Below, in pieces: positions 6,815 to 64,000 of a stretch of DNA of 64,000 nt. The position numbers and the translations under genes are program-made. The notes under the pieces are model-generated. The model had not been told where the DNA came from, did no database searches, and worked only from the letters and a program-made list of their open reading frames with translations. Position 1 is the stretch's first letter. Every line of letters starts with the position of its first letter. Source of the stretch: a phage; assembly GCA_029944565.1 (NCBI GenBank), contig GCA_029944565.1_4115.1; one strand, written 5' to 3'.

Positions 6815-7385
6815 ATTTTTCCTTAACAGATTCTATATTTTGAAGTAGTGTATTCAGAACATCAGTCTTGCAATTGATAAAATCATTGTACATAACTAGT
6901 TCACCACAATCAAGAATTTTTGCAGTATCGTAACAAAGCATTAAGTACTCGAATTCTTTGTAATTGTCCAACAAGGATTTCTGGAAAATGAATGCATCTC
7001 GAATATCTTCACTTTGGTCTAATTCTGGTGGAACATCCAACCCAATAAATCCATCATCTTCACTGAAATTAGATTCTACAATTTTATTCATTTTTTCATG
7101 TAATGCATTCGCAAATACCATATTAGAAGAAATAGAACCAATACGTTCACGATTTCTGGATGTGCGAATGTACATAGTAATCGTATCCCATGAACTTTTA
7201 ATTTTTTTAGAAAATTCATAAGTTTTATATACATCCAACTGAACTGATCCAAAACGATGTTTGGATTTGTTTTCAATTTTCAGTCGATAATCATCAAATT
7301 CAACAATTTCTGTAATGTCATGAATCTCTGAAAGTTCTGCAATGTCATGCATGAGTCTCAAAATTTTAGTTCTGATATGGTTCAT
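6801..7385 (-). CDS. hypothetical protein, family A paralog
   Basis: motif DAFIFQKSLLD. Confidence 0.55.
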   Translation of the reverse strand: MNHIRTKILRLMHDIAELSEIHDITEIVEFDDYRLKIENKSKHRFGSVQLDVYKTYEFSKKIKSSWDTITMYIRTSRNRERIGSISSNMVFANALHEKMNKIVESNFSEDDGFIGLDVPPELDQSEDIRDAFIFQKSLLDNYKEFEYLMLCYDTAKILDCGELVMYNDFINCKTDVLNTLLQNIESVKEKYERL

Positions 7386-35183: not shown

Positions 35184-35211
35184 ATTTTATACGATTCATA
35201 TAAAAAGTCAA
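35184..35211 (-). promoter_or_regulatory. sigma70-like promoter of the family B array (TTGACT-16-TAAAAT)
   Basis: hexamers on minus strand upstream of 34956..35153. Confidence 0.5.
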
Positions 35212-35402
35212 TAACATTTTATTCGTAATACCCCTTTATCGAAGTCGCTAAGGTTACCCGCCCTTTAGCCCCCTACGCATTTTGCCATAGTCCAATCCCT
35301 TTTATTTCAAAAAAGTCAAGGGATTACCTATGCATTTTTTTAACGCATAATTTTAAAAACGCCTTGACTTTTTTCTGAATCAGTACTAGATCCCTTTACG
35401 CA
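35212..35402. promoter_or_regulatory. repeat-rich upstream region of the family B array
   Basis: four ACGCAT-type repeats (ctacgcatttt, ctatgcatttt, aacgcataatttt, ttacgcattaat), inverted repeat TATGC-N11-GCATA, 8-bp stem aatccctt/aagggatt. Confidence 0.4.
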
Positions 35403-35612
35403 TTAATCCTTCGTTACGCTAACGATTATCTGTGTATCCCCGTAGTCCTGCCATACTTCCACGCCATCGGTCGCCCTGGTTAGTCGTGCTGTCATCTGCT
35501 TAATGGTCTTAGGCTTTAGTGGAACCTGTTGCAGTACTGTACGCATAGCATCATTGACGTTATCATGTACGCCTGCAATAGTGCCTAGGACGCTGTATAC
35601 TGTATAGAACAT
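35403..35612 (-). CDS. hypothetical protein
   Basis: 69-aa ORF; SD aggag 8 nt upstream. Confidence 0.55.
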   Translation of the reverse strand: MFYTVYSVLGTIAGVHDNVNDAMRTVLQQVPLKPKTIKQMTARLTRATDGVEVWQDYGDTQIIVSVTKD

Positions 35613-38500: not shown

Positions 38501-38559
38501 GGGGAGAACTATTCTCCCCTTGATGTAAACTATTATACAGTACTGATATACTTTGTCAA
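38501..38559 (-). promoter_or_regulatory. early promoter (TTGACA-16-TATAAT) plus leader hairpin
   Basis: hairpin ggggagaa-ctat-tctcccc. Confidence 0.7.
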
Positions 38560-53797: not shown

Positions 53798-53856
53798 GCG
53801 GGAAGTGTTCCCGCTCTCGATGTAAAACATTATACGCTTTTAAACATAGTTTGCAA
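53798..53856 (-). promoter_or_regulatory. early promoter (TTGCAA-16-TATAAT) plus leader hairpin
   Basis: hairpin agcggga-agtgt-tcccgct. Confidence 0.65.
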
Positions 53857-53886
53857 GTACTTTCTACATGTACTTTTAAAATAGTT

Positions 53887-53975
53887 TTCTTTCTATATAG
53901 GAGTACTATTATTCAGTACTGCAACCATCCAGGGGAACTATCTTTCTATATAGGAGTACTATGATTCAGTACTGA
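53887..53975. repeat. two ~33-bp direct repeats (tctttctatataggagtactatNattcagtactg)
   Basis: copies at ~53889-53920 and ~53942-53975. Confidence 0.6.
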
Positions 53976-54136
53976 ATCAATCCACCAAATCATCCCGATA
54001 CCCCGTAAAACGGCCTCAGACGCATTCTAACGCATTAATACACCTAAGCTATACATTTGCACCATTCCAATCATTCCAGGGCTTTACGGGCCGTTTAAAC
54101 GCGTTAAATTATTTTCAATTATTTTGTTTTTAGCTA

Positions 54137-54164
54137 TTGACTCAGTACTGAAAAAGCGTATAAT
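54137..54164 (+). promoter_or_regulatory. plus-strand promoter (TTGACT-16-TATAAT)
   Basis: hexamers on plus strand; followed by conserved-core transcript. Confidence 0.55.
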
Positions 54165-54351
54165 TACTATATAGACGCGAGAAAGCGGATACCCCAGGGG
54201 GTGGGAAGATCCGTCCAAAATTCAAGATATAAAAAAAGGATAGACTCCCGCACCCTAGCAGGTTAACGCACTTTCTCAGTACTGAATTATAGTACCATAG
54301 TCCGGCCCAGGATGGCAAGCAAATTAATTAAAACTTTTTTCATCCAGGGTA

Positions 54352-54380
54352 TTGCTTTATTTTTCCAGTACTGCTATAAT
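54352..54380 (+). promoter_or_regulatory. plus-strand promoter (TTGCTT-17-TATAAT)
   Basis: followed by GTC-gagaaa-GAC hairpin and CCCACCGGGTGCATAGTTGTATCTA core. Confidence 0.5.
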
Positions 54381-54477
54381 ATTTTTATCAAGTCGAGAAA
54401 GACTCTAGCCCACCGGGTGCATAGTTGTATCTAAAATTCAGTACTAGATTATTTTTTAAAATTATTCATCCAAGCGG

Positions 54478-54506
54478 TTGACATACCAGGCGAAAACGGG
54501 GATAAT
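54478..54506 (+). promoter_or_regulatory. plus-strand promoter (TTGACA-17-GATAAT)
   Basis: hexamers on plus strand, no ORF downstream. Confidence 0.5.
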
Positions 54507-54599
54507 GATTCCAGATTCAGAAAAATCTAACTCCAGATACTGCGGGGAAACCATCCCCACGCGGTAGGGGAACTATTGGAAAAAATAAAATAAAAATTT

Positions 54600-54770
54600 T
54601 GATTTAGCCGTCTATACATCCAGACGTGTAACCATCTAGCCGTTTAGCCGTCCAAACGTCTAGCAGTACAGCCATCTAGAAATCTAGCCATCCAGCCGCC
54701 TAGAGGGATAGCCATCTTTACTTCCAGCCATCTGGAGGTCTAGACATCTCTACGTCTAAATTTAACCTAG
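54600..54770. repeat. iteron-like cluster of short GC-rich repeats (CCATCTAG / CGTCTA / TCTAGC)
   Basis: at least 10 degenerate units with CTAG cores in 170 bp, GC-rich against AT-rich background. Confidence 0.6.
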
Positions 54771-54914
54771 GGTTACTACACCCAAAATCCGTCAGTACTA
54801 TACCATAGATCTATCTTTTGAAAGGGAGTATTCAGTACTGCCATCATAGCCCTCACTATGTTACCCTAGGAGGATGAAGACTATCATGTAGTACTGAATA
54901 CTGTTAGGGGGAAT

Positions 54915-54934
54915 CCACCAGCACAAGCTGGTGG
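54915..54934. other. back-to-back Chi octamers CCACCAGC-acaa-GCTGGTGG
   Basis: perfect 8-bp inverted pair, Chi in both orientations. Confidence 0.55.
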
Positions 54935-55570
54935 CATAATGCTTTAGATTAAAATCAGTACTGACACCATTCTGTTAATATCAGTACTGTTATTACGATT
55001 TTCATATGAGGTTCAAAAAGATGTACCACCACAGGAGGAACTATCTTTTCTGTACTGTCTCACGACAGGAGGTAGAGTAAATGAATTGTTCGCAGCAACT
55101 CATCACCCTATGTAGAACATTATACAGTACTGAATCATAATGTCAATAACTTTCTTTCACCATTCAGTACTGATATTCTTGAGAACTACCCGACTACAAA
55201 CATCATTATATCCCACAAATCATAAACGTCCCAACGTAAATTTCAACTTTCGAAGATCCAACTTTTATTTCATAGGTACTCCAAAATTTTTAGGATCGAG
55301 ATTTAGAATGGAGTACTAACCAACTTTTTGCTGGAGCCTCAAGGGGTAATGGAATTTTACCCCGAAGGGTAAAAGGGTAATTGTAATTAAGGTGAAAGTA
55401 ATAATTCAGTACTAATCATTGCGTGATTACTTTTGATTACATTTGATGTAATTTGCAAAATGGAAAAGGAGCTTGGAAACTACAAAGTACGGCAGACTTC
55501 CTCTGCCTACTTAGTGGCATATCAGTACTGCTACGTTCTTGATTAAACGTGAACATTCCTGTACTCTAGT

Positions 55571-55610
55571 ACTCACTACTGTTCACTACTGTTCACTACT
55601 GATCACTACA
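55571..55610. repeat. four tandem 10-bp repeats (CTCACTACT/GTTCACTACT/GTTCACTACT/GATCACTACA)
   Basis: helical-pitch spacing, followed by ATGATTAC-type repeats at 55619-55670. Confidence 0.65.
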
Positions 55611-55721
55611 GTGATTATAAATGATTACTTAAATGTTTATATATGATTACTTATGACTACCTATGATTACGGGGTTTAGCCTGGGGAGAATCCTAGTGAT
55701 CGCATTTGTCCAGGCTGAATT

Positions 55722-55756
55722 TTAACATATGCAACATATGTTAAAGCCTGTATAAT
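55722..55756 (+). promoter_or_regulatory. perfect palindrome TTAACATATG-caa-CATATGTTAA next to -10 TATAAT
   Basis: 10-bp inverted arms at 55722-55744; TATAAT at 55751-55756 preceded by TG. Confidence 0.45.
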
Positions 55757-55786
55757 GCTTCCACTACGGAGCTTCCCCTAGCTATA

Positions 55787-55978
55787 TTACTTCCTATATA
55801 TAAGCATTAAGATATAGTAGTACTGATTATACTGTACATTCTCTTTAATATTATAAGGGTCTATAGCAATCTCGGTACATCTGTTAAATGCATATCTATT
55901 AAATGCCAGTGGAATTATAGATCTAATCCATACTTGTTCATTTTCTTTTAGTTTACTTATATAGAAGTTTTTATACAT
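55787..55978 (-). CDS. small hypothetical protein, family C paralog
   Basis: ends LMLIYRK; tandem array. Confidence 0.45.
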   Translation of the reverse strand: MYKNFYISKLKENEQVWIRSIIPLAFNRYAFNRCTEIAIDPYNIKENVQYNQYYYILMLIYRK

Positions 55979-55993
55979 AGTATTCTCTATTAA

Positions 55994-56176
55994 TTAATAT
56001 GGTAGTACTAGTGTTAGTACTGAGCACAATTGTTCTTTGTAGTTCTTAGGGTATATAGAATCTTTTATGCACTCATTGAAGTGCCATAGGTATAATCTTG
56101 GGTCGCATTCTTTATATATTCTTACGGGGACGAATGTTAGTTTTCGTATATAGAATTCTTTATGTTCTTTATTCAT
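55994..56176 (-). CDS. small hypothetical protein, family C paralog
   Basis: MNKEHKEFY start. Confidence 0.45.
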   Translation of the reverse strand: MNKEHKEFYIRKLTFVPVRIYKECDPRLYLWHFNECIKDSIYPKNYKEQLCSVLTLVLPY

Positions 56177-56177
56177 A

Positions 56178-56366
56178 TTAGTACCTGAATATAAGTAGGA
56201 TTATGTTATAGTACTGGTTAGTACTGCAATGATTCTCTATACATCGATTAACAGTTATGGAATAGCTATATCTGGCGTAAGCATTATCCAGCGGGATTTT
56301 ACATTGAGCACTTAGAGAAAGTACAGTAGGTAGTGTATTCAAATAGAAGTCTTTGTAATTATTCAT
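56178..56366 (-). CDS. small hypothetical protein, family C paralog
   Basis: ends ILLIFRY. Confidence 0.45.
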   Translation of the reverse strand: MNNYKDFYLNTLPTVLSLSAQCKIPLDNAYARYSYSITVNRCIENHCSTNQYYNIILLIFRY

Positions 56367-56568
56367 ACAGGAATAGTATACCTATGATACCTGAGTACAG
56401 GTTAGTACTGTTACCATCTTCGTTTGCGTTTAAAGTCATTTGAATACAATTATTGTAGCATACTCTGCCGAAAAATGTATTAGTACTTAAAGGTGGAGTA
56501 GTCCTTAGAAACATTTGTTCTGAGGGGCTTATGTATTTGGAGTAGAATTCTTTATGTTCTTTATTCAT
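56359..56568 (-). CDS. small hypothetical protein, family C paralog
   Basis: MNKEHKEFY start. Confidence 0.45.
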   Translation of the reverse strand: MNKEHKEFYSKYISPSEQMFLRTTPPLSTNTFFGRVCYNNCIQMTLNANEDGNSTNLYSGIIGILFLYE

Positions 56569-56573
56569 ATTAG

Positions 56574-56759
56574 TTAGTGTCTGTATATAAGTAATAGTAA
56601 GAATACGTACTGCACATCTTCATCTTTAGTATTGAGTACTGTACGTATTGCGTCATTAAACAAGAATATAGTACTTGGGTCATGAGAATTTAAAGGGGTT
56701 CTGGGTACGGCATGTTTGTAGTTCCCTTTAACAAATTGTGTGTAGTATTCTCTATGCAT
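56574..56759 (-). CDS. small hypothetical protein, family C paralog
   Basis: MHREYY start, ends LLLIYRH. Confidence 0.45.
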   Translation of the reverse strand: MHREYYTQFVKGNYKHAVPRTPLNSHDPSTIFLFNDAIRTVLNTKDEDVQYVFLLLLIYRH

Positions 56760-56760
56760 A

Positions 56761-56946
56761 TTAGTACCTATATATTAGGGCGAGAATGTAGTACAATTCA
56801 TATGGAATGTAATTTGGGGTGATCGCACACTGTGTATGGTAAATGAATTGTTCGGTATTTTTCTTATCCTTGATATCTATTGGGATTTGTGGTATAAGCA
56901 TTTGGGAGTTTAGATCGAGATGGCTTAAGTAGAATTCTTTATGCAT
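56761..56946 (-). CDS. small hypothetical protein, family C paralog
   Basis: MHKEFY start, ends LALIYRY. Confidence 0.45.
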   Translation of the reverse strand: MHKEFYLSHLDLNSQMLIPQIPIDIKDKKNTEQFIYHTQCAITPNYIPYELYYILALIYRY

Positions 56947-56955
56947 ATTGTTCTC

Positions 56956-57144
56956 TTAGAATACGAAAGCTAGGTACAGGGTATGATACAGTACTTGATT
57001 ATAGTTGTAATAATTTATCACGCATTTAGTGCACGTAATGAAGTAGTCTTTTTTGTAGTTTATTTCTATACCGCTAGGTTCATCTTCTAACAGATTACCT
57101 TGAAGGTGCGGAGGTAAATCTTTTATGTAGTATTCTTTATGCAT
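56956..57144 (-). CDS. small hypothetical protein, family C paralog
   Basis: start at internal MHKEYYIKDL of track ORF. Confidence 0.45.
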   Translation of the reverse strand: MHKEYYIKDLPPHLQGNLLEDEPSGIEINYKKDYFITCTKCVINYYNYNQVLYHTLYLAFVF

Positions 57145-57145
57145 G

Positions 57146-57328
57146 TTAGTACCTGAATATAAGTAGGATAGTGTTATATAGCTGGTCATAACTACTACTA
57201 TTTTCTATACTTCGTTCTATGCAGTTATTGAATCCCAGTACTGCCAAATCGTTATCCATAGGGACTTTATATCTGGCGTAGTGTTCAAAAATGCTGGGGA
57301 GAAATTGTGTGTAGTATTCTTTGTGCAT
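57146..57328 (-). CDS. small hypothetical protein, family C paralog
   Basis: MHKEYY start, ends ILLIFRY. Confidence 0.45.
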   Translation of the reverse strand: MHKEYYTQFLPSIFEHYARYKVPMDNDLAVLGFNNCIERSIENSSSYDQLYNTILLIFRY

Positions 57329-57329
57329 A

Positions 57330-57521
57330 TTAGTACCTATATATTAGTAAAAGGATGTGATACAGTACTCGATTATAGTCGTCAATATATATCGAGGATT
57401 TAGTGCACTGAATGAAGTAGTCTTTTTCGTAGTTTTTTTCTATACCCAATGCAACGTTTGGTACAAGGTGTTGGAGATACATTGGGAGTTTCTCTATGTA
57501 GTATTCTTTGTGGTTATTCAT
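57330..57521 (-). CDS. small hypothetical protein, family C paralog
   Basis: MNNHKEYY start, ends LLLIYRY. Confidence 0.45.
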   Translation of the reverse strand: MNNHKEYYIEKLPMYLQHLVPNVALGIEKNYEKDYFIQCTKSSIYIDDYNRVLYHILLLIYRY

Positions 57522-57529
57522 ATTATGTG

Positions 57530-57709
57530 TTATTTCGTGAAAACAAGGGTTAGTACTGCATAGTACAAGTCATACGTATCTTTAGGGTTAATAGCACCTT
57601 TAATACATTCTTTTATTAATTCATTATAGATAATTTTAGTACTGAAGGTATTGGATGTTACTATATCGGAATTAAGGTACGAGAGGTAGAATTCTTTATG
57701 TTTGTGCAT
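57530..57709 (-). CDS. small hypothetical protein, family C paralog (59 aa)
   Basis: MHKHKEFY start; below ORF-track cutoff. Confidence 0.4.
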   Translation of the reverse strand: MHKHKEFYLSYLNSDIVTSNTFSTKIIYNELIKECIKGAINPKDTYDLYYAVLTLVFTK

Positions 57710-57710
57710 A

Positions 57711-57893
57711 TTAGTACCTGAATGTTAGCATTACTACGTAGTACAGCATATATGGATTATCATCGTATATGAGCGTGTACTTAGTACATTGTTGGAACAT
57801 TATTTTTGCGTGATCTTTTATTCCTATTGGTTCTTTTGGTATATGGTGCTGGAGATGCATTGGGAGATGTTCCCTGTAGTATTCTTTATACAT
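57711..57893 (-). CDS. small hypothetical protein, family C paralog
   Basis: start at internal MYKEYYREHL, ends VMLTFRY. Confidence 0.45.
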   Translation of the reverse strand: MYKEYYREHLPMHLQHHIPKEPIGIKDHAKIMFQQCTKYTLIYDDNPYMLYYVVMLTFRY

Positions 57894-58557
57894 AGTTTGT
57901 AATATACGTAATGAGGTGATGCATTTTCTTATTAGTACTGATAAGTTCCTGTACATGTTTTGTCAGATTGTACGCGTTTTTATAGAGTACTGGATTATCG
58001 ATTACAGTACTGTACATGAATAGTTCTTCTTCCTGTAGTTCTTTGTGTTCTAGTTCTTTGAGGAATTGTAGTACTGTATCAGTTTCTTCTGTACGTTGTG
58101 CTTGCCAGAAGTGCATATTCTCGTGTACTTTTTCTGCATCAGTAGAGTATATGCCACCCATTTGGAATTGTGCTGTATTGACATCGTGGGAGGTGTTACA
58201 ATTCCCGAAGAAGTATGTATTCCCGAAGTATAGCATTAAAGTGCACGGGGTATTATCCAACTGCATATTGATGATGAAGGATGCGTTCTTTAGTACCTTT
58301 GTGCTCGTATTAGTACTCAATACTTTTAAATCAGTATTATAGATATTCATATAATGAACAGCTATATTATTTTTCTTCATGTACAATTCAAGGTTCTTTG
58401 ATACGTTAACTCCATTTGTACTGGATTTTTCCTTTTTATTTCGTTTCTTTAGTACATTCGGGTGATACGTATATGCAGATGTAACTGATTCTGCCTGAAT
58501 ACTATTGAGGTACTTAAAGTGCTTAAGGTATTGTTTGCTGTGTGCATTAAGTTTCAT
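57886..58557 (-). CDS. hypothetical protein with family A module, embedded in family C array
   Basis: 223 aa; C-terminal LQEEELFMYSTVIDNPVLY. Confidence 0.6.
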   Translation of the reverse strand: MKLNAHSKQYLKHFKYLNSIQAESVTSAYTYHPNVLKKRNKKEKSSTNGVNVSKNLELYMKKNNIAVHYMNIYNTDLKVLSTNTSTKVLKNASFIINMQLDNTPCTLMLYFGNTYFFGNCNTSHDVNTAQFQMGGIYSTDAEKVHENMHFWQAQRTEETDTVLQFLKELEHKELQEEELFMYSTVIDNPVLYKNAYNLTKHVQELISTNKKMHHLITYITNYV

Positions 58558-58567
58558 TTGGTTTCCT

Positions 58568-58747
58568 TTATATAGATGCCAGGGCGAGGATTTCCCTGTA
58601 GGGATTATCTTGTGTTAGTACAGCATAAATGCAGTTATTGAGATTAATATTTTTAGTACTTTTTGTTCCTAGTTTGTAGTACTTCACGAAGGTGTCGTAC
58701 ATGAAACGGTCTTTTATGGTTATACGTTCTCTATAGAATTGTTGCAT
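58568..58747 (-). CDS. small hypothetical protein, family C-like (59 aa)
   Basis: MQQFYRERI start; below ORF-track cutoff. Confidence 0.35.
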   Translation of the reverse strand: MQQFYRERITIKDRFMYDTFVKYYKLGTKSTKNINLNNCIYAVLTQDNPYREILALASI

Positions 58748-58755
58748 AGTATTCC

Positions 58756-58938
58756 TTATATAGAGATTAGTTTCATTACTTCTCTGTATGTGTACTTTTC
58801 GTTTTGTGCATCTCTTGTGACGACATATAGGAAGGTGTGTTTATCTTTTTTGTTCCCGCAATTGTAGAAAATATTGAACTTATTGAAGTTGAATCTTTCG
58901 GCGTGTTGTAGTTTAGTTAAATAGAATTCTATGTTCAT
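58756..58938 (-). CDS. small hypothetical protein, family C-like
   Basis: 60-aa ORF ending MKLISI. Confidence 0.4.
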   Translation of the reverse strand: MNIEFYLTKLQHAERFNFNKFNIFYNCGNKKDKHTFLYVVTRDAQNEKYTYREVMKLISI

Positions 58939-58946
58939 TTTCTTCC

Positions 58947-59132
58947 TTACATTTCAATAAGTTTCAGTACTGCTCGGTACGTGTACTTAGTTGTCAGTGC
59001 TTCTTTAATAGAAATACAGAAGTAATGTTGTTTGTCTCTTATACTGCCGCGTTTGTAGTACCACACATGGGAGTTGTGACTGTACTTGTCTCTGTCGGAT
59101 AGTTGTTGGTAGTAGTAGCTTATATGATTCAT
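58947..59132 (-). CDS. small hypothetical protein, family C-like
   Basis: 61-aa ORF ending LKLIEM. Confidence 0.4.
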   Translation of the reverse strand: MNHISYYYQQLSDRDKYSHNSHVWYYKRGSIRDKQHYFCISIKEALTTKYTYRAVLKLIEM

Positions 59133-59341
59133 TATAATGTAATTAGCCTTACTATATTAAAGTACTCGGTCCCTGGTGTACCTTGTAGTATATTACGCAC
59201 GACATTTTTTTGGTGCTGGATGATTGCTGAAGGTGCGGTTCTTTTTAGTTTTTTTAAAGTACTGAATTCTTGTTTAAGTATGAACTGTACATCTTTAGGG
59301 AGAATATCTATGTAGTACTGATGAATGTTTGTAGTTTTCAT
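59132..59341 (-). CDS. small hypothetical protein, family C paralog
   Basis: QYYIDILP start region, ends VRLITL. Confidence 0.45.
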   Translation of the reverse strand: MKTTNIHQYYIDILPKDVQFILKQEFSTLKKLKRTAPSAIIQHQKNVVRNILQGTPGTEYFNIVRLITL

Positions 59342-59351
59342 ATAGCACCTT

Positions 59352-59546
59352 TTAGAACTTAAAGATGAGGTTCAGGATAGAGCGGTACTTAGTTTCAGGG
59401 AACTGATGTTCTATTGCATAACGTGTCGCCATCCTGAAATCGTAATTGTAATATAGATTATCCTTTCTCATAGGTGGTGCTAAAGAGAATGATAGCTGGT
59501 CTTGCTTGTGTAGTTTACTACCATAGAAATCTTTATGATTATTCAT
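59352..59546 (-). CDS. small hypothetical protein, family C paralog
   Basis: MNNHKDFY start, ends LNLIFKF. Confidence 0.45.
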   Translation of the reverse strand: MNNHKDFYGSKLHKQDQLSFSLAPPMRKDNLYYNYDFRMATRYAIEHQFPETKYRSILNLIFKF

Positions 59547-59748
59547 AGAAGTAGATTAGTCCTATTAAACCTGAGTACATAATATTTTTGTTATTGCATT
59601 CGATTGCTTCTAGAGTACTACGTATACAATTATTAAAGCAATCTCTACCGAAGTGAGTATTGGTACTTACAGGTGATACACTCCTTAGAAACAATTGTTC
59701 TTCGTTGCTAAGGTATTTGGTGTAGAATTCTTTATGTTCAGTATTCAT
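59539..59748 (-). CDS. small hypothetical protein, family C paralog
   Basis: MNTEHKEFY start. Confidence 0.45.
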   Translation of the reverse strand: MNTEHKEFYTKYLSNEEQLFLRSVSPVSTNTHFGRDCFNNCIRSTLEAIECNNKNIMYSGLIGLIYFYE

Positions 59749-59749
59749 A

Positions 59750-59953
59750 TTAGTACTCGATTAAAAGGGCAAGGATATAATAGTATTGCATACTTTCTGC
59801 CCCTTGTAAAGCATTTCTTATGATATTACTCCTGTACGAGTTCAGGAGTTTAGGACAACGTTTGTAGTGTATAAAAGTATTTTGTGTATACAGTAGGCTT
59901 TCTCGTAGACCTTTTGTTGGTAGTGCATCGATGTAGTACTGTTCAATGTTCAT
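59750..59953 (-). CDS. small hypothetical protein, family C paralog
   Basis: MNIEQYYIDALP start, ends LALLIEY. Confidence 0.45.
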   Translation of the reverse strand: MNIEQYYIDALPTKGLRESLLYTQNTFIHYKRCPKLLNSYRSNIIRNALQGAESMQYYYILALLIEY

Positions 59954-60177
59954 ATAGATAGCAGTACTAAGATTTTTGATAATTGTTTATTGCTATCCCC
60001 GCAGATGTTGCTGTGTAAAATACTCACAATGAGGGTATCAATTGCATTGTTCATCATAAGGGTGCATCCTGGACTATTATAATTTTTTAGCTCAATTAGC
60101 CACGAACTATCCGAGAGAAATTCCCCGTACTCTAGTTCATTTAGAGTATTGAGGTAGTACTTAAGAGTATTTGTCAT
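59950..60177 (-). CDS. small hypothetical protein (first gene of family C operon)
   Basis: 75-aa ORF with SD aaggag. Confidence 0.45.
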   Translation of the reverse strand: MTNTLKYYLNTLNELEYGEFLSDSSWLIELKNYNSPGCTLMMNNAIDTLIVSILHSNICGDSNKQLSKILVLLSI

Positions 60178-60279: not shown

Positions 60280-61428
60280 ATGTTACCTTTTGTTAGAATG
60301 ATTAAGTACGGGAATATTGCCCCTGGTGATGATGGACGTTTTAAAATATATTCCAGTGATTCCATGTATCTTCATGATACTTATACTGATAAGTTGTATG
60401 CATCTTCTGCGACGAATTGGGGTACTGGAACAGGTGTTTCGTCGAGTAAATTTATTCTTAGTGCGGAGAATGTTAAACGAGTTCTATTGGAAAATAACAG
60501 TAGTGATTGTCAATTGTATGAAGAGAAAGGTACTGGAAAAGTTTTTATCACTGGTAACACGAAGGCATTCACTGGTGTAACTGATAGAAAAACTTTGTGG
60601 ACGGAATGTACTACGTGGATAACATCAGGTGGTATTAATGTTTCTGATATAAAATACATGAGTAGTTTTAATGATATGAAGGTAAATTTGATAACAAACG
60701 ATGGTACATTGTATTGTTGTGGAGCTAACAATAACTCTAACCTATCATCATTTGGTGATGGTACAAACATTAATTCTTTTAACACATTCAAAAGGGTAGA
60801 TACTATAACTTCGGTTAAAAAGGCAGTTGGTAACATATACCTAAAAGAAGATAATACTTTATGGGGTTGTGGTTTTAACTATTACTATCAGTTAGGTACA
60901 GGTAATCAAACTTCTATTACTGGGGTGACGATGATTGCTTCGGATGTTATAGATTTTGATGTAAGTTATCAGAGTACATTTTTTATTAAATCAGATAATA
61001 ATTTGTACGCATGTGGTAAACAGTTCGGTGCACAATACGGGAACGAATTTGGCACAGGTGGTACTTCTTCATCTACAGATATACAATACAAAACTCCAAC
61101 ATTATTGAGTCCAGGAGTTTATAGTTTATATACTTGTGTTGGTAACATGGCGTCACATATAGTTAAAGGTGATGAAGTACTTTATGCATCTGGAAGCAAC
61201 TCGTCTGGTCAATTAGGTGTTGGTAATAATATTAATCAGTACTCTTATACCCCTTCATATACTTCGTTTAATACTTCGTGTAATTTGGTACGCACCCCAT
61301 CTGGTTCACTTATACTTACTGACACTTCGAAGTTATATTATTGTGGGGCTTCAATTGTAGTAATGGGAGGTATTGCTGGACAGAACGTTCTTAATTATAC
61401 CGAAGTCGATATGTCATTTTTGCAGTGA
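60280..61428 (+). CDS. RCC1-like repeat (beta-propeller) protein, family D copy 1
   Basis: repeated Gx(N)xxGQLGxG units (LWGCGFNYYYQLGTGN, LYASGSNSSGQLGVGN); start MLPFVRM after SD. Confidence 0.55.
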   Translation: MLPFVRMIKYGNIAPGDDGRFKIYSSDSMYLHDTYTDKLYASSATNWGTGTGVSSSKFILSAENVKRVLLENNSSDCQLYEEKGTGKVFITGNTKAFTGVTDRKTLWTECTTWITSGGINVSDIKYMSSFNDMKVNLITNDGTLYCCGANNNSNLSSFGDGTNINSFNTFKRVDTITSVKKAVGNIYLKEDNTLWGCGFNYYYQLGTGNQTSITGVTMIASDVIDFDVSYQSTFFIKSDNNLYACGKQFGAQYGNEFGTGGTSSSTDIQYKTPTLLSPGVYSLYTCVGNMASHIVKGDEVLYASGSNSSGQLGVGNNINQYSYTPSYTSFNTSCNLVRTPSGSLILTDTSKLYYCGASIVVMGGIAGQNVLNYTEVDMSFLQ

Positions 61429-61435
61429 TTTGATA

Positions 61436-61466
61436 TGCCAGTACTTGATGCTGGCTTTTCTTTTTT
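61436..61466 (+). terminator. rho-independent terminator
   Basis: hairpin gccag-N9-ctggc followed by T-run. Confidence 0.6.
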
Positions 61467-61501
61467 GTATTAAATATAGTATAATGAATAAGGAGGGATT
61501 T

Positions 61502-62611
61502 ATGTTACCTTTTGGAAGAATGGTTAAGTACGGAAATATTGTACCTGGTCCTAAAAATATAATTAAAGTTGGTGCTTCTACACAAGGTCAATTCTTATTG
61601 ACTGATTCACATGATTTATATTACATAGGTAGAAATCAAGGTGGTGAATCTGGAAATGGTAATACCAACACGGTATCTTCATGGATATTAGTAAGTGCAG
61701 ATGTTTCTAATTTTTTCGTGGGTGATCGTACACTTGTTATTATTAAAAATGATAATACGATATGGACATCAGGTCAAACGTACTGGTTCTCATCTTCTAC
61801 AACTACTTCTTACAGTACTGTATTAGTTGAAAGGACTAGTTGGTTTACCACGGCTATACCAGTAAGTGAGATTGCTAATATTGTATGTACAAATGGTTTA
61901 ATATTTGTACTTAGCACTAATTCAGTACTCTATGGTGCAGGAGATAATGGATATCGTGGTTCTTTGGGTATTGGTTCATCATCAATTTATACATTAACTC
62001 AATGTGCTACGAACGTTCGTAAAGTAATGACCAATGCGAATGATAGTATGTATCTTACATTAGATAATAAGCTATATAGTTCTGGATGGAATAGTAGTGG
62101 GCAGCATGGTACGGGGAACCAAACACAAATTAACACTTGGGGATTGCGTAGTTCTGGTGTAATCGATGCAGCCATTGGTGGTAATGCATTAAATTACTAT
62201 AATGGTACATCATATTTCGTATGTGGTCAAACTCCAAACTTTCTTAGTTCAGGTACGACTACATTCCGTGCAGTTCCTGTAAGTACTTTGCCTAATAGTT
62301 CTCCGTTGTTTATGACGAATTCACCTGCATTAAATACTGCTACACAAATGGTAATTACTAGTACATATCAAAAGGGTGTTGGGGCGAACCGTGGTTTGGG
62401 ATTAAACAATTCTCAAACTGGTGCTATATATAGTGCTACCAATTTACAATTACCCGTTGAAGTTAGTGAGATTAGGGATGTTCTTTTTAGTGATGGTTTG
62501 ACATCGATATTAACCAAAAATGGAGATGTGTATAGTACTGGATCGTATTACGCCATTCCAGGTGCAATCGAGGATGTTGCAGTCTTTACTAAAATTGATT
62601 TACCAAAATAA
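61502..62611 (+). CDS. RCC1-like repeat protein, family D copy 2
   Basis: motifs LYGAGDNGYRGSLGIG and LYSSGWNSSGQHGTGN; start MLPFGRM. Confidence 0.55.
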   Translation: MLPFGRMVKYGNIVPGPKNIIKVGASTQGQFLLTDSHDLYYIGRNQGGESGNGNTNTVSSWILVSADVSNFFVGDRTLVIIKNDNTIWTSGQTYWFSSSTTTSYSTVLVERTSWFTTAIPVSEIANIVCTNGLIFVLSTNSVLYGAGDNGYRGSLGIGSSSIYTLTQCATNVRKVMTNANDSMYLTLDNKLYSSGWNSSGQHGTGNQTQINTWGLRSSGVIDAAIGGNALNYYNGTSYFVCGQTPNFLSSGTTTFRAVPVSTLPNSSPLFMTNSPALNTATQMVITSTYQKGVGANRGLGLNNSQTGAIYSATNLQLPVEVSEIRDVLFSDGLTSILTKNGDVYSTGSYYAIPGAIEDVAVFTKIDLPK

Positions 62612-62615
62612 CATA

Positions 62616-62647
62616 ATGCCAGTGCTTGATACTGGCATTCTTATTTG
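62616..62647 (+). terminator. rho-independent terminator
   Basis: hairpin atgccagt-gcttgat-actggcat followed by T-rich tract. Confidence 0.6.
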
Positions 62648-62681
62648 TATTAAATATAGTATAATGAATAAGGAGGGAAAT

Positions 62682-63830
62682 ATGTTACCTTTTGGAAGAA
62701 TGATTAAGTACGGAAATATTGCACCTAACCCGCCTGATCCTAGTACACGTTTTAAAATATATTCCGGCGGTAGTGCTATGTATTTTCATGATACATACAC
62801 GAAAAATTTGTATGCATCAGCGGCAGTCAGTCAGGGTACTGGAACTGGTGTAGCGTCGAGTAAATTTATTCTTAGTGCGACTAATGTTAAAAGAGTCCTT
62901 TTGGAAAATAACAGTAGTGGTTGTCAATTATATGAAGAAGACGGTACTGGAAAAGTGTTTATAACTGGAAGTCCGAGTGCGTTTTCTGGTTCAGGTGCAT
63001 ATTATAACACGTGGACAGATTGTACTTCATGGATAACATCCAGTGGTATTAATGTTTCTGATATAAAATACATGAGTAGTTACAGTGATCTTAAAGTGAA
63101 TTTGATAACAACTGATGGTACTTTATATTGCTGCGGAACAAACAGCACATCAACCAGATCATCTTTTGGTAATGGCACAAATACAAATTCATTTAACGCC
63201 TTTGTTAAGATTGAAGCCATATCATCGGTAAAAAAAGCTGTTGGTAACATATACCTAAAAGAAGATAATACATTATGGGGTTGTGGTATTAACACTTACT
63301 ATCAGTTAGGGACAGGCAATCAAACTGCTAGTACTGGTGTTGTTAGAATACAGACTAATGTTATAGATGTCGATGTAAGTTATCAGAGTACATTTTTTAT
63401 TAAAGATGATAATAAATTGTACGCTTGTGGTACACAATATGGAGTATCATATGGTAATGAATTCGGCACAGGCACAACACTTAAGCAATACACAACACCA
63501 ACTTTATTGAATTCGGATGTACAGAATATATACTGTTGTGTTGGTAATATGGCTTCACATATTCTCAGATTTGGGACTACAATATTTGCATCTGGGGTTA
63601 ACACTGGTGGGCAATTGGGTGTTGGTAATCTTACAAATCAGTTCTATTATACCAAGTCTTATGAAAATTTTAATAGTTCTTACAGTTTAGTACTGAATAA
63701 CATCGGTAGTTTGATTCTCACAGATGAAGGGAAGTTATTTTATACTGGTTTTTCCAATCTAGTAATGGGTGGAAGTTCTGGGCAGTACACTACAAGATAT
63801 ACCGAAGTTGATATGTCATTTATACAATGA
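62682..63830 (+). CDS. RCC1-like repeat protein, family D copy 3
   Basis: close paralog of copy 1 (LWGCGINTYYQLGTGN, IFASGVNTGGQLGVGN). Confidence 0.55.
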   Translation: MLPFGRMIKYGNIAPNPPDPSTRFKIYSGGSAMYFHDTYTKNLYASAAVSQGTGTGVASSKFILSATNVKRVLLENNSSGCQLYEEDGTGKVFITGSPSAFSGSGAYYNTWTDCTSWITSSGINVSDIKYMSSYSDLKVNLITTDGTLYCCGTNSTSTRSSFGNGTNTNSFNAFVKIEAISSVKKAVGNIYLKEDNTLWGCGINTYYQLGTGNQTASTGVVRIQTNVIDVDVSYQSTFFIKDDNKLYACGTQYGVSYGNEFGTGTTLKQYTTPTLLNSDVQNIYCCVGNMASHILRFGTTIFASGVNTGGQLGVGNLTNQFYYTKSYENFNSSYSLVLNNIGSLILTDEGKLFYTGFSNLVMGGSSGQYTTRYTEVDMSFIQ

Positions 63831-63833
63831 ATT

Positions 63834-63866
63834 AAAGCCAGTACTTGATACTGGCTTTTATTTTTT
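63834..63866 (+). terminator. rho-independent terminator
   Basis: hairpin aaagccagta-cttga-tactggcttt followed by T-run. Confidence 0.65.
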
Positions 63867-63900
63867 GATTAAATATAGTATAATGAATAAAGGAGGAATT

Positions 63901-64000
63901 ATGTTACCTTTTACAAGAATGGTTAAGTACGGGAATAAAGTCATTCCATATGTTCCCAATTTTACTAAATTAGTCACCCCAGCAGTTGGTTATTCATTTA
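63901..64000 (+). CDS. RCC1-like repeat protein, family D copy 4 (3' truncated by window)
   Basis: same promoter/RBS box and N-terminus MLPFTRMVKYGN. Confidence 0.5.
   Translation, partial: MLPFTRMVKYGNKVIPYVPNFTKLVTPAVGYSF

Follow-up and report, generated by a model that had tools for sequence, protein, structure and literature searches.

Phased repeats and hairpins outside a terminal-repeat boundary of an Asteriusvirus jumbo coliphage: candidate elements for end formation

Phage T7 has a terminal repeat of 160 bp, and its left-end junction combines an array of CCTAAAG units with a 13-bp period (positions 175–341) and, at position 405, the promoter phiOL. Chung, Nardone and Hinkle reportedly invoked, in 1990, a palindrome or hairpin near this junction in the duplication of the repeat. 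Phage T5 has a long terminal repeat that carries genes read early by the host polymerase (the pre-early region). Its Repeat Region 3, an untranslated block of about 1.2 kb composed of direct repeats and palindromes, extends 270 bp past the end of the repeat; its DnaA boxes are paired, a nick has been mapped there, and the region has been discussed as a signal that stops DNA injection. Short repeats are also a feature of the sites at which other phage genomes are cut. The P1 pac site has TGATCA/G hexamers, four on one side and three on the other, lambda cosB has its R sites, and SPP1 pac comprises pacL and pacR. In all three, repeats of one orientation flank or adjoin a defined cut, and binding by the small terminase has been demonstrated.

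The DNA analyzed here is a 64-kb stretch (the window) of an Asteriusvirus jumbo coliphage of the 121Q/PBECO4/G17 group, whose host is E. coli. An initial annotation singled out a repeat block at 55571–55760 and likened it to an operator-controlled promoter beside an iteron block; the decisive context, absent from that annotation, is a terminal-repeat boundary at 55511/55512. The 1.7 kb around the block is 90–95% identical to Asteriusvirus jumbo coliphages (121Q, G17, PBECO4 and others), and the block lies in a geneless stretch of 1.35 kb (about 54434–55787) flanked by small minus-strand genes. In the G17 record the direct terminal repeat measures 20,668 bp, the length also given by PhageTerm for Sharanji; in alignment, G17 position 1 falls on window position 35251 and its last base on 55511. 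CRJP21, E9.1, vB_Ec-M-J, BF17, ELP-22 and fEgEco12 start or end at a base shared with G17, the first five with the terminus ...CCTCTGCCTACT/ (here and below, a slash within a sequence marks the boundary). In all, seven independently deposited GenBank records end at the base aligning to 55511, and in two of them, G17 and fEgEco12, the start aligns to 35251 as well. PhageTerm and restriction digests confirm the ends of fEgEco12; we set aside the 8.3-kb repeat published for UE-S1, which the fEgEco12 paper questions. From homology with the ends of these relatives we infer that the right boundary of the repeat lies at 55511/55512 and that the repeat spans 35251–55511 (20,261 bp), present in the window as a single copy because the assembly collapsed it. 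Since the ends of G17 and its relatives align to 55511, the repeat block begins 60 bp beyond the physical genome end and, on this placement, lies 60–250 bp outside the right boundary of a direct terminal repeat of about 20.3 kb. Genome papers on these phages give the length of the repeat and nothing else about it.

Set beside the described systems, the locus resembles T7 in its exact, non-permuted terminal repeat, in an array of short repeats outside it, and in a candidate outward promoter that has no gene. The two differ in repeat length (about 20 kb rather than 160 bp) and in array period (10, 20 or 60 bp rather than 13), and they share no sequence similarity; T7 has arrays at both ends, whereas the phage of the window has them at one boundary only. 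The T7 promoter serves the phage polymerase, whereas the box in the window is sigma-70-like, not of the phage single-subunit-polymerase type, and CTGTATAAT is also found in host-type early promoters. Likeness to T5 lies in the long terminal repeat with its host-polymerase early genes, and in a repeat family found on both sides of the repeat end (DRD in T5, with six copies inside and three outside; TGATTAC in the window). The untranslated block of the window, too, lies mostly within the repeat and overruns its end by 275 bp. However, the sequences are unrelated, and neither paired DnaA boxes nor the other hallmarks of the T5 region were seen here. Like the P1, lambda and SPP1 sites, the boundary is accompanied by short repeats of one orientation, here three plus five copies of TGAYTAY; those genomes have cohesive ends or are permuted by headful packaging, whereas this phage has exact 20-kb repeats and its units are candidate binding sites. 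Iteron-type origins offer a further parallel in their helical-pitch direct repeats beside AT-rich DNA and a promoter, but their units measure about 17–22 bp, in contrast to the unconserved 10-bp unit seen here.

Read outward, the two boundaries of the repeat are ACT/TAGTGGC and ACCT/TAGCGAC. At the right boundary TAGTGGC occupies 55512–55518 on the plus strand, its first base being the first base outside the repeat; TAGCGAC lies just outside the left boundary at 35244–35250 on the minus strand (bottom strand ...ACCT/TAGCGAC). The pattern CTTAGYGRC occurs twice in the 64-kb window, once per boundary and on opposite strands, where chance would give about one copy in 128 kb. These counts are suggestive of a common cut motif; the likeness of the two sites is short, and its chance probability, with offsets and orientation allowed for, is an estimated 0.01–0.02 or thereabouts. 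The T5 boundary lacks this TAG motif. The left boundary (35190–35550) is a short intergenic gap, with a TTGACT..TAAAAT promoter for an outward gene on its outer side; inside the repeat it has four copies of ACGCAT (35275, 35343, 35398 and 35541) and an inverted repeat, AAAAAAGTCAAGG / CCTTGACTTTTTT, at 35309 / 35362. Tandem repeat arrays are absent from the left boundary, unlike the right, and the outward motif is present there.

A blastn search of a phage collection with 55380–55800 returned only Asteriusviruses, and we reached other genera through annotated repeat boundaries, those of Klebsiella phage fENko-Kae01 having been placed by PhageTerm and those of Pectobacterium phage CBB by read depth. 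Read outward, they are GATA/TAGCGGAAGG and GCCT/TAGCCAC in fENko-Kae01 (Kae01), and GATA/TAGCGGAAGG and CGCT/TAGCGAG in CBB. TAG(Y)(S)(R) is found on the outer side of all six boundaries in the three genera, a count to be read with the shortness of the motif and the homology of same-side boundaries across genera in mind. Exact-pattern scans of IMG/VR matched 121Q only with a 26-mer from the right boundary and nothing with a 20-mer from the left; scans with two 15-mers gave mostly chance matches, which we filtered by AGTACT density. GATA/TAGCGG recurs in four further IMG/VR lineages (L057, L211, L217 and L203), so that TAGCGG stands at the equivalent position in these four as well as in Kae01 and CBB. 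AGTACT-type motifs lie just outside the cut in the four IMG/VR lineages, three of which have tandem arrays.

An inverted repeat, AAGTA-C-GGCAGA cttcc TCTGCC-TACTT, abuts the right boundary (55485–55512), with the presumptive cut at its base. As single-stranded DNA it folds with −8.3 kcal/mol (z = −3.15), and analogous inverted repeats adjoin the cut in Kae01, L057, L217 and L203. Farther inside the repeat, GGTACTCC-N27-GGAGTACT (55275–55317) is 95–100% identical among Asteriusviruses and has homologs in Kae01 and CBB. A plus-strand ORF of 59 aa at 55140–55319 has been called by automatic annotation of some relatives (for example SHEFM2K, with JNE01 and E9.1 as probable cases) and is unannotated in G17 and 121Q; it is probably not a gene, because it overlaps this inverted repeat conserved across genera.

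What borders the junction segment differs between lineages. Small inward-facing genes come next in Asteriusviruses; Kae01, CBB and L203 have a promoter (GGGTAAATA..TATAAT) there and then a large gene facing outward. The corresponding promoter of the window stands near 60290, with 4.4 kb of paralogous 60-aa minus-strand genes intervening. Because its neighbors differ in this way, the segment travels with the boundary and not with the adjacent genes. The minus strand of 55787–60177 holds 20 small genes, 13 of them in one family of about 60 aa (MNKEHKEFY...LIYRY); the array is missing from this position in Kae01, CBB and L203. Farther right, an element of about 115 bp is repeated between large plus-strand paralogous genes (G17_00070-74) at 61433–61551, 62594–62726 and 63833–63937, and it matches three intergenic sites annotated as terminators in G17.

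Conservation changes abruptly just outside the boundary. Among 13 Asteriusvirus genomes identity is 98–99% up to 55519 and collapses directly after; it recovers over 55631–55727, which holds the ATGAYTAC units and the AGCCTGG/CCAGGCT pair, and falls again over the palindrome and the −10 box. The stretch at 55520–55612 is hypervariable, with an identity of 0.50–0.78 and up to 130 inserted alignment columns, next to 0.98–0.99 directly inside the repeat. It contains AGTACT-type motifs (CAGTACTG at 55523, TGTACT at 55560, AGTACT at 55568 and three copies of ACTACT) and the 10-bp tandem repeats, which are present where the initial annotation put them. TRF reported 3.7 copies of TCACTACTGT on the plus strand at 55573–55609 (score 67, 96% matches), among the top three arrays in the 64 kb; the unit differs by one base from TCAGTACTGT, a genome-wide motif (family D2). 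This array is confined to the window, 121Q (2.7 copies) and a few others. In the Asteriusvirus alignment it is absent from G17, PBECO4, fEgEco12 and slurp01, and G17 and PBECO4 have TCAGTACTGA and other sequence at its site. Being missing in such close relatives, it cannot be essential as such.

Other arrays occur at the same place. That of slurp01 is a perfect 60-bp repeat in 3.3 copies (L019, 1342–1537, 100% identity); L057 has 3.3 copies of the 10-bp unit AGTACTGAAG and L217 3.6 copies of the 10-bp unit GTAGCTTACC, and a 354-kb IMG/VR contig (L211) carries a very clean array of a 20-bp unit in 8.3 copies (7199–7364). Tandem arrays are found 20–60 bp outside the cut in at least five lineages, with units unrelated in sequence, and in 6/6 arrays (window, 121Q, L057, L217, L211 and slurp01) the period is a multiple of 10 bp. 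Each 60-bp unit of slurp01 and each 20-bp unit of L211 contains AGTACT.

The second repeat type of the initial annotation was likewise recovered, as ATGAYTAC units at 55621, 55643, 55653 and 55663, with GTGATTAT at 55611 as an addition. They make up an outer TGAYTAY group on the plus strand (55611–55671; copies at 55612, 55622, 55644, 55654 and 55664), all in one orientation and spaced by 10 or 22 bp, whose core at 55631–55671 is conserved in the 13 genomes. An inner group, GTGATTACTT TTGATTACAT TTGATGTAAT, lies on the same strand at 55423–55452, in 10-bp phase and 60–88 bp inside the cut, and is nearly invariant across the 13 genomes. TGATTAC copies are thus tightly clustered on both sides of the cut: the window holds 11 copies (7.65 expected), five of them within 240 bp.

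Two hairpin-forming elements lie beyond the outer group. We confirmed the inverted repeat AGCCTGG (55678–55684) / CCAGGCT (55710–55716), with 25 nt between its arms; as an element it covers 55676–55719, encloses GAATCCTAGTGATCGC and is conserved among Asteriusviruses. Its counterparts in Kae01, L217 and L203 (ACAGGTGT..ACACCTGT), and likewise those in CBB and L211, enclose GAATCCTTTCGATA. Beyond the position of the tandem arrays, then, all lineages have an inverted repeat around a GAATCC(T)..GAT core, and several have CCTGTATAAT. The adjacent palindrome is present too, with arms of 11 bp where 10 had been reported (TTTAACATATG-caa-CATATGTTAAA, 55721–55745). No other perfect hairpin of the window is as long; taken alone it exceeds chance by little, as the window has three different hairpins with arms of 10 bp or more where 1.3 are expected. 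Together with an outer CAGGC/GCCTG pair it makes up a composite hairpin (55711–55750), and the CCAGGCT arm can pair either within this structure or with AGCCTGG.

The composite hairpin exists in four versions: TTAACATATG-caa-CATATGTTAA, TTAACAATT-cttct-AATTGTTAA, TTAACATCT-ttacg-AGATGTTAA and CAGGC(T)GAATT-ttaac-AATTCGCCTG, the last in the 121Q group. Each is a hairpin closed by CAGGC..GCCTG; three change symmetrically, and the fourth keeps only the hairpin. Across the alignment 95% of cells are paired and three pairs have changed on both sides, a pairing score reached by 2/500 shuffles; the fold of the composite hairpin has z = −3.06. Because the 121Q type retains the hairpin without TTAACA..TGTTAA half-sites, a structure is favored over a protein site. 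As an intrinsic terminator the palindrome was rejected, its stem being AT-rich and followed by no T-run on either strand. An Rfam scan of 53800–56200 gave no family at threshold; the best match, to the miRNA family MIR393, scored 20.3 bits where 60 are required (E = 0.37) and is attributable to chance. The TATAAT at 55751–55756 on the plus strand points away from the terminal repeat and lies six bp past the palindrome, as the initial annotation had it; the TG preceding it (55749–55750) abuts the box and does not make a canonical TGnTATAAT.

AGTACT is the commonest hexamer of the window, with 259 copies where dinucleotide composition predicts about 19, and CAGTACTG has 54 copies where 0.76 are expected. 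AGTACT sites occur across the window (for example at 450, 3970, 38538, 54366 and 55523) and in all three reading frames (62/43/65), with a density of 7.7/kb in non-coding DNA versus 3.2/kb elsewhere; they are nearly absent from 20–28 kb and 32–36 kb, and they are also dense at the Kae01 and CBB boundaries. The literature searched holds no mention of AGTACT or CAGTACTG in these phages and no transcript mapping for an Asteriusvirus. The motif also marks a set of about 13 strong and nearly identical predicted sigma-70 early promoters, TTGACA-N8-(C/T)AGTACTG-TATAAT, on the minus strand between 37021 and 55146 (for example at 38545, 39039, 41893, 47565, 51566 and 55132). The rightmost, TTGACA-N8-CAGTACTG-TATAAT, occupies 55119–55146 inside the repeat, and all strong sigma-70 promoters of the window fall inside the terminal repeat. 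Most are followed, about 10 nt later, by a GC-rich hairpin (GGGGAGAA..TTCTCCCC); the G17 annotation names these hairpins terminators, yet they stand after the promoter and have no T-run. At 54603–54762, downstream of the minus-strand promoter at 55132, twenty 8-bp units (TCTAGCCG, TCCAGACG and the like) stand head to tail, with GTTACTACACCCAAAAT after them. CBB has a homologous array of 8-bp period followed by GTACACCCAAAAT. A period of 8 bp matches neither a whole number of codons nor the helical pitch.

We tentatively favor the view that the repeat block is the unique-side half of a terminal-repeat junction and that its elements act in cis in end formation and packaging. By analogy with the described systems this is the most likely explanation, held with somewhat less than even confidence because the role of the analogous arrays is itself putative in T7 and T5. 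It takes its footing from what was observed: where the block lies relative to mapped ends, how conservation runs across it, arrays that recur between lineages and hairpins that are conserved; a further step, that phased repeats and hairpins guide an end-forming nuclease and the copying of the repeat, would extend the same analogy. The right boundary would then be the site at which virion ends are cut in replicating concatemers, by a nuclease (the terminase or a partner) acting beside the outward-reading ...CT/TAGYGRC. Inversion of the motif between the two boundaries would fit two opposite cuts or nicks followed by repeat copying, as proposed for T7. Specificity and DNA geometry might come from short repeats that lie in helical phase to either side of the cut: the TGATTAC groups, one at −60 to −88 bp and one at +100 to +160 bp, and also the AGTACT-type cluster, which in this lineage would have given rise to the 10-bp array by amplification. 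Three hairpins, one abutting the cut and two conserved ones 165–240 bp outside it, would be further elements, and the outward TATAAT may be the counterpart of T7 phiOL, a junction promoter without a gene of its own.

Several other explanations bear on the same elements. The 10-bp array may have no function at all, being a slippage or recombination by-product of a break hot spot beside the cut, so that only its conserved neighbors matter. We doubt this but give it real weight: the stretch is hypervariable, array presence and copy number differ among genomes that are 90–95% identical, and units are unrelated between lineages. Yet arrays recur at one place in at least five lineages, most units hold an AGTACT-type motif, and slippage alone is disfavored because the six periods (10, 10, 10, 10, 20 and 60) are all multiples of 10 bp. 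Transcriptional control, in the form of an outward sigma-70 promoter (TGTATAAT) with the palindrome as its operator and the AGTACT-type repeats as sites for a phage regulator, is on balance unlikely, as is its corollary that the same regulator shuts off the early promoters with CAGTACTG in their spacers. The operator-controlled promoter of the initial annotation finds some backing in recurrence. CCTGTATAAT follows a palindrome in the window, L057 and L217, and CCTGTGTATAAT does so in Kae01, there upstream of an outward gene; the palindrome would span about −43 to −20 of the candidate promoter, and its symmetric changes are also expected from co-evolution with a dimeric binder. The occurrence of CAGTACTG in about 13 early-promoter spacers points the same way. 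The promoter itself fares less well: a consensus scan made no call at 55751–55756 (−10 6/6, best −35 3/6), and TATAAT is kept in 6/13 Asteriusviruses and lost in seven (TCCAAT in two, absent or replaced in five), with CMSTMSU, in a separate alignment outside the 13, also having TCCAAT. No plus-strand ORF lies downstream, a transcript would be antisense to real genes, and the 121Q-type palindrome is without TTAACA..TGTTAA half-sites. The junction segment is at the same time the region upstream of the outward genes in Kae01 and CBB, which a purely transcriptional role fits too; such a role is plausible and does not exclude the junction reading.

The iteron or origin claim of the initial annotation did not survive, and we consider a replication origin, in which phased repeats would act like iterons beside AT-rich DNA and a promoter for priming, improbable. 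TAAATGTTTATATAT and a −10 box do adjoin direct repeats in 10-bp phase, the cumulative GC skew is lowest at about 55.8 kb, and transcription diverges at this site in Kae01 and CBB. However, the 10-bp repeats are not conserved among close relatives, 54434–55800 contains neither DnaA boxes nor IHF sites, and the neighboring genes are 60-aa paralogs, with no initiator gene nearby. The skew flip can be accounted for otherwise: it coincides with the first gene of the paralogous family, whose coding-strand GC3 skew is −0.34, the genes to its left lack a replication-type third-position skew, and codon-position analysis attributes the flip to the odd composition of this one family. GATC (Dam) sites near the junction are not notable. 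An RNA element, whether a terminator or 3' structure for the leftward operon of small genes or a small RNA, would suit conserved hairpins placed just downstream of the last minus-strand gene, and a single U.G to C-G change in the AGCCTGG inverted repeat fits a plus-strand RNA. We think this very improbable, with a U-run after neither hairpin on either strand and the element retained in Kae01, CBB and L203 without upstream leftward genes. We give almost no credence to a DNA-entry signal, in which complex untranslated DNA at the inner end of the repeat would pause genome entry as at the T5 injection stop, with all host-polymerase early genes carried in the repeat. The confinement of the strong sigma-70 promoters to the repeat and the dimensions of the untranslated block (1.35 kb reaching 275 bp past the repeat, against 1.2 kb and 270 bp in T5) speak for it, but the junction DNA lacks the paired DnaA boxes by which the T5 region is defined, the repeat block is outside the terminal repeat whereas the T5 stop point is inside, and two-step entry is unreported for these phages.

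Returning to end formation, we speculate that Rak2-like jumbo phages share an end-forming module composed of a TAGYG nuclease, a fold-back hairpin and an array bound by an AGTACT protein, a proposal that in its entirety we judge quite unlikely. The nuclease would cut 5' of the outward TAGYG at both boundaries of the repeat of about 20 kb. The cut would coincide with the base of the hairpin, so that the 3' end it creates could fold on itself and serve as primer for repeat copying, and the array would be a fast-evolving set of sites, in helical phase, for an AGTACT-recognizing protein. If true, one DNA-binding protein would link early-gene shut-off, genome organization and end formation.

The repeat of about 20 kb is known from published work on these phages; the literature searched contains no description of its boundary elements, of the TAG motif common to the boundaries or of the phased arrays that recur there. 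Many Rak2-like genomes have been deposited in arbitrary permutations, and annotators gain a candidate signature, ..GATA/TAGCGG.. or ..ACT/TAGTGG.., for their true ends. The analysis yields a base-precise predicted cut site with a motif common to both ends and to several genera, and it defines flanking elements, of which some are conserved and others turn over yet retain periods in multiples of 10 bp. The junction would offer a compact substrate for packaging and cleavage assays in a phage that can be cultured on E. coli. More broadly, it bears on how phages with long exact repeats, such as T5, SPO1 and many jumbo phages, may recognize and duplicate their ends.
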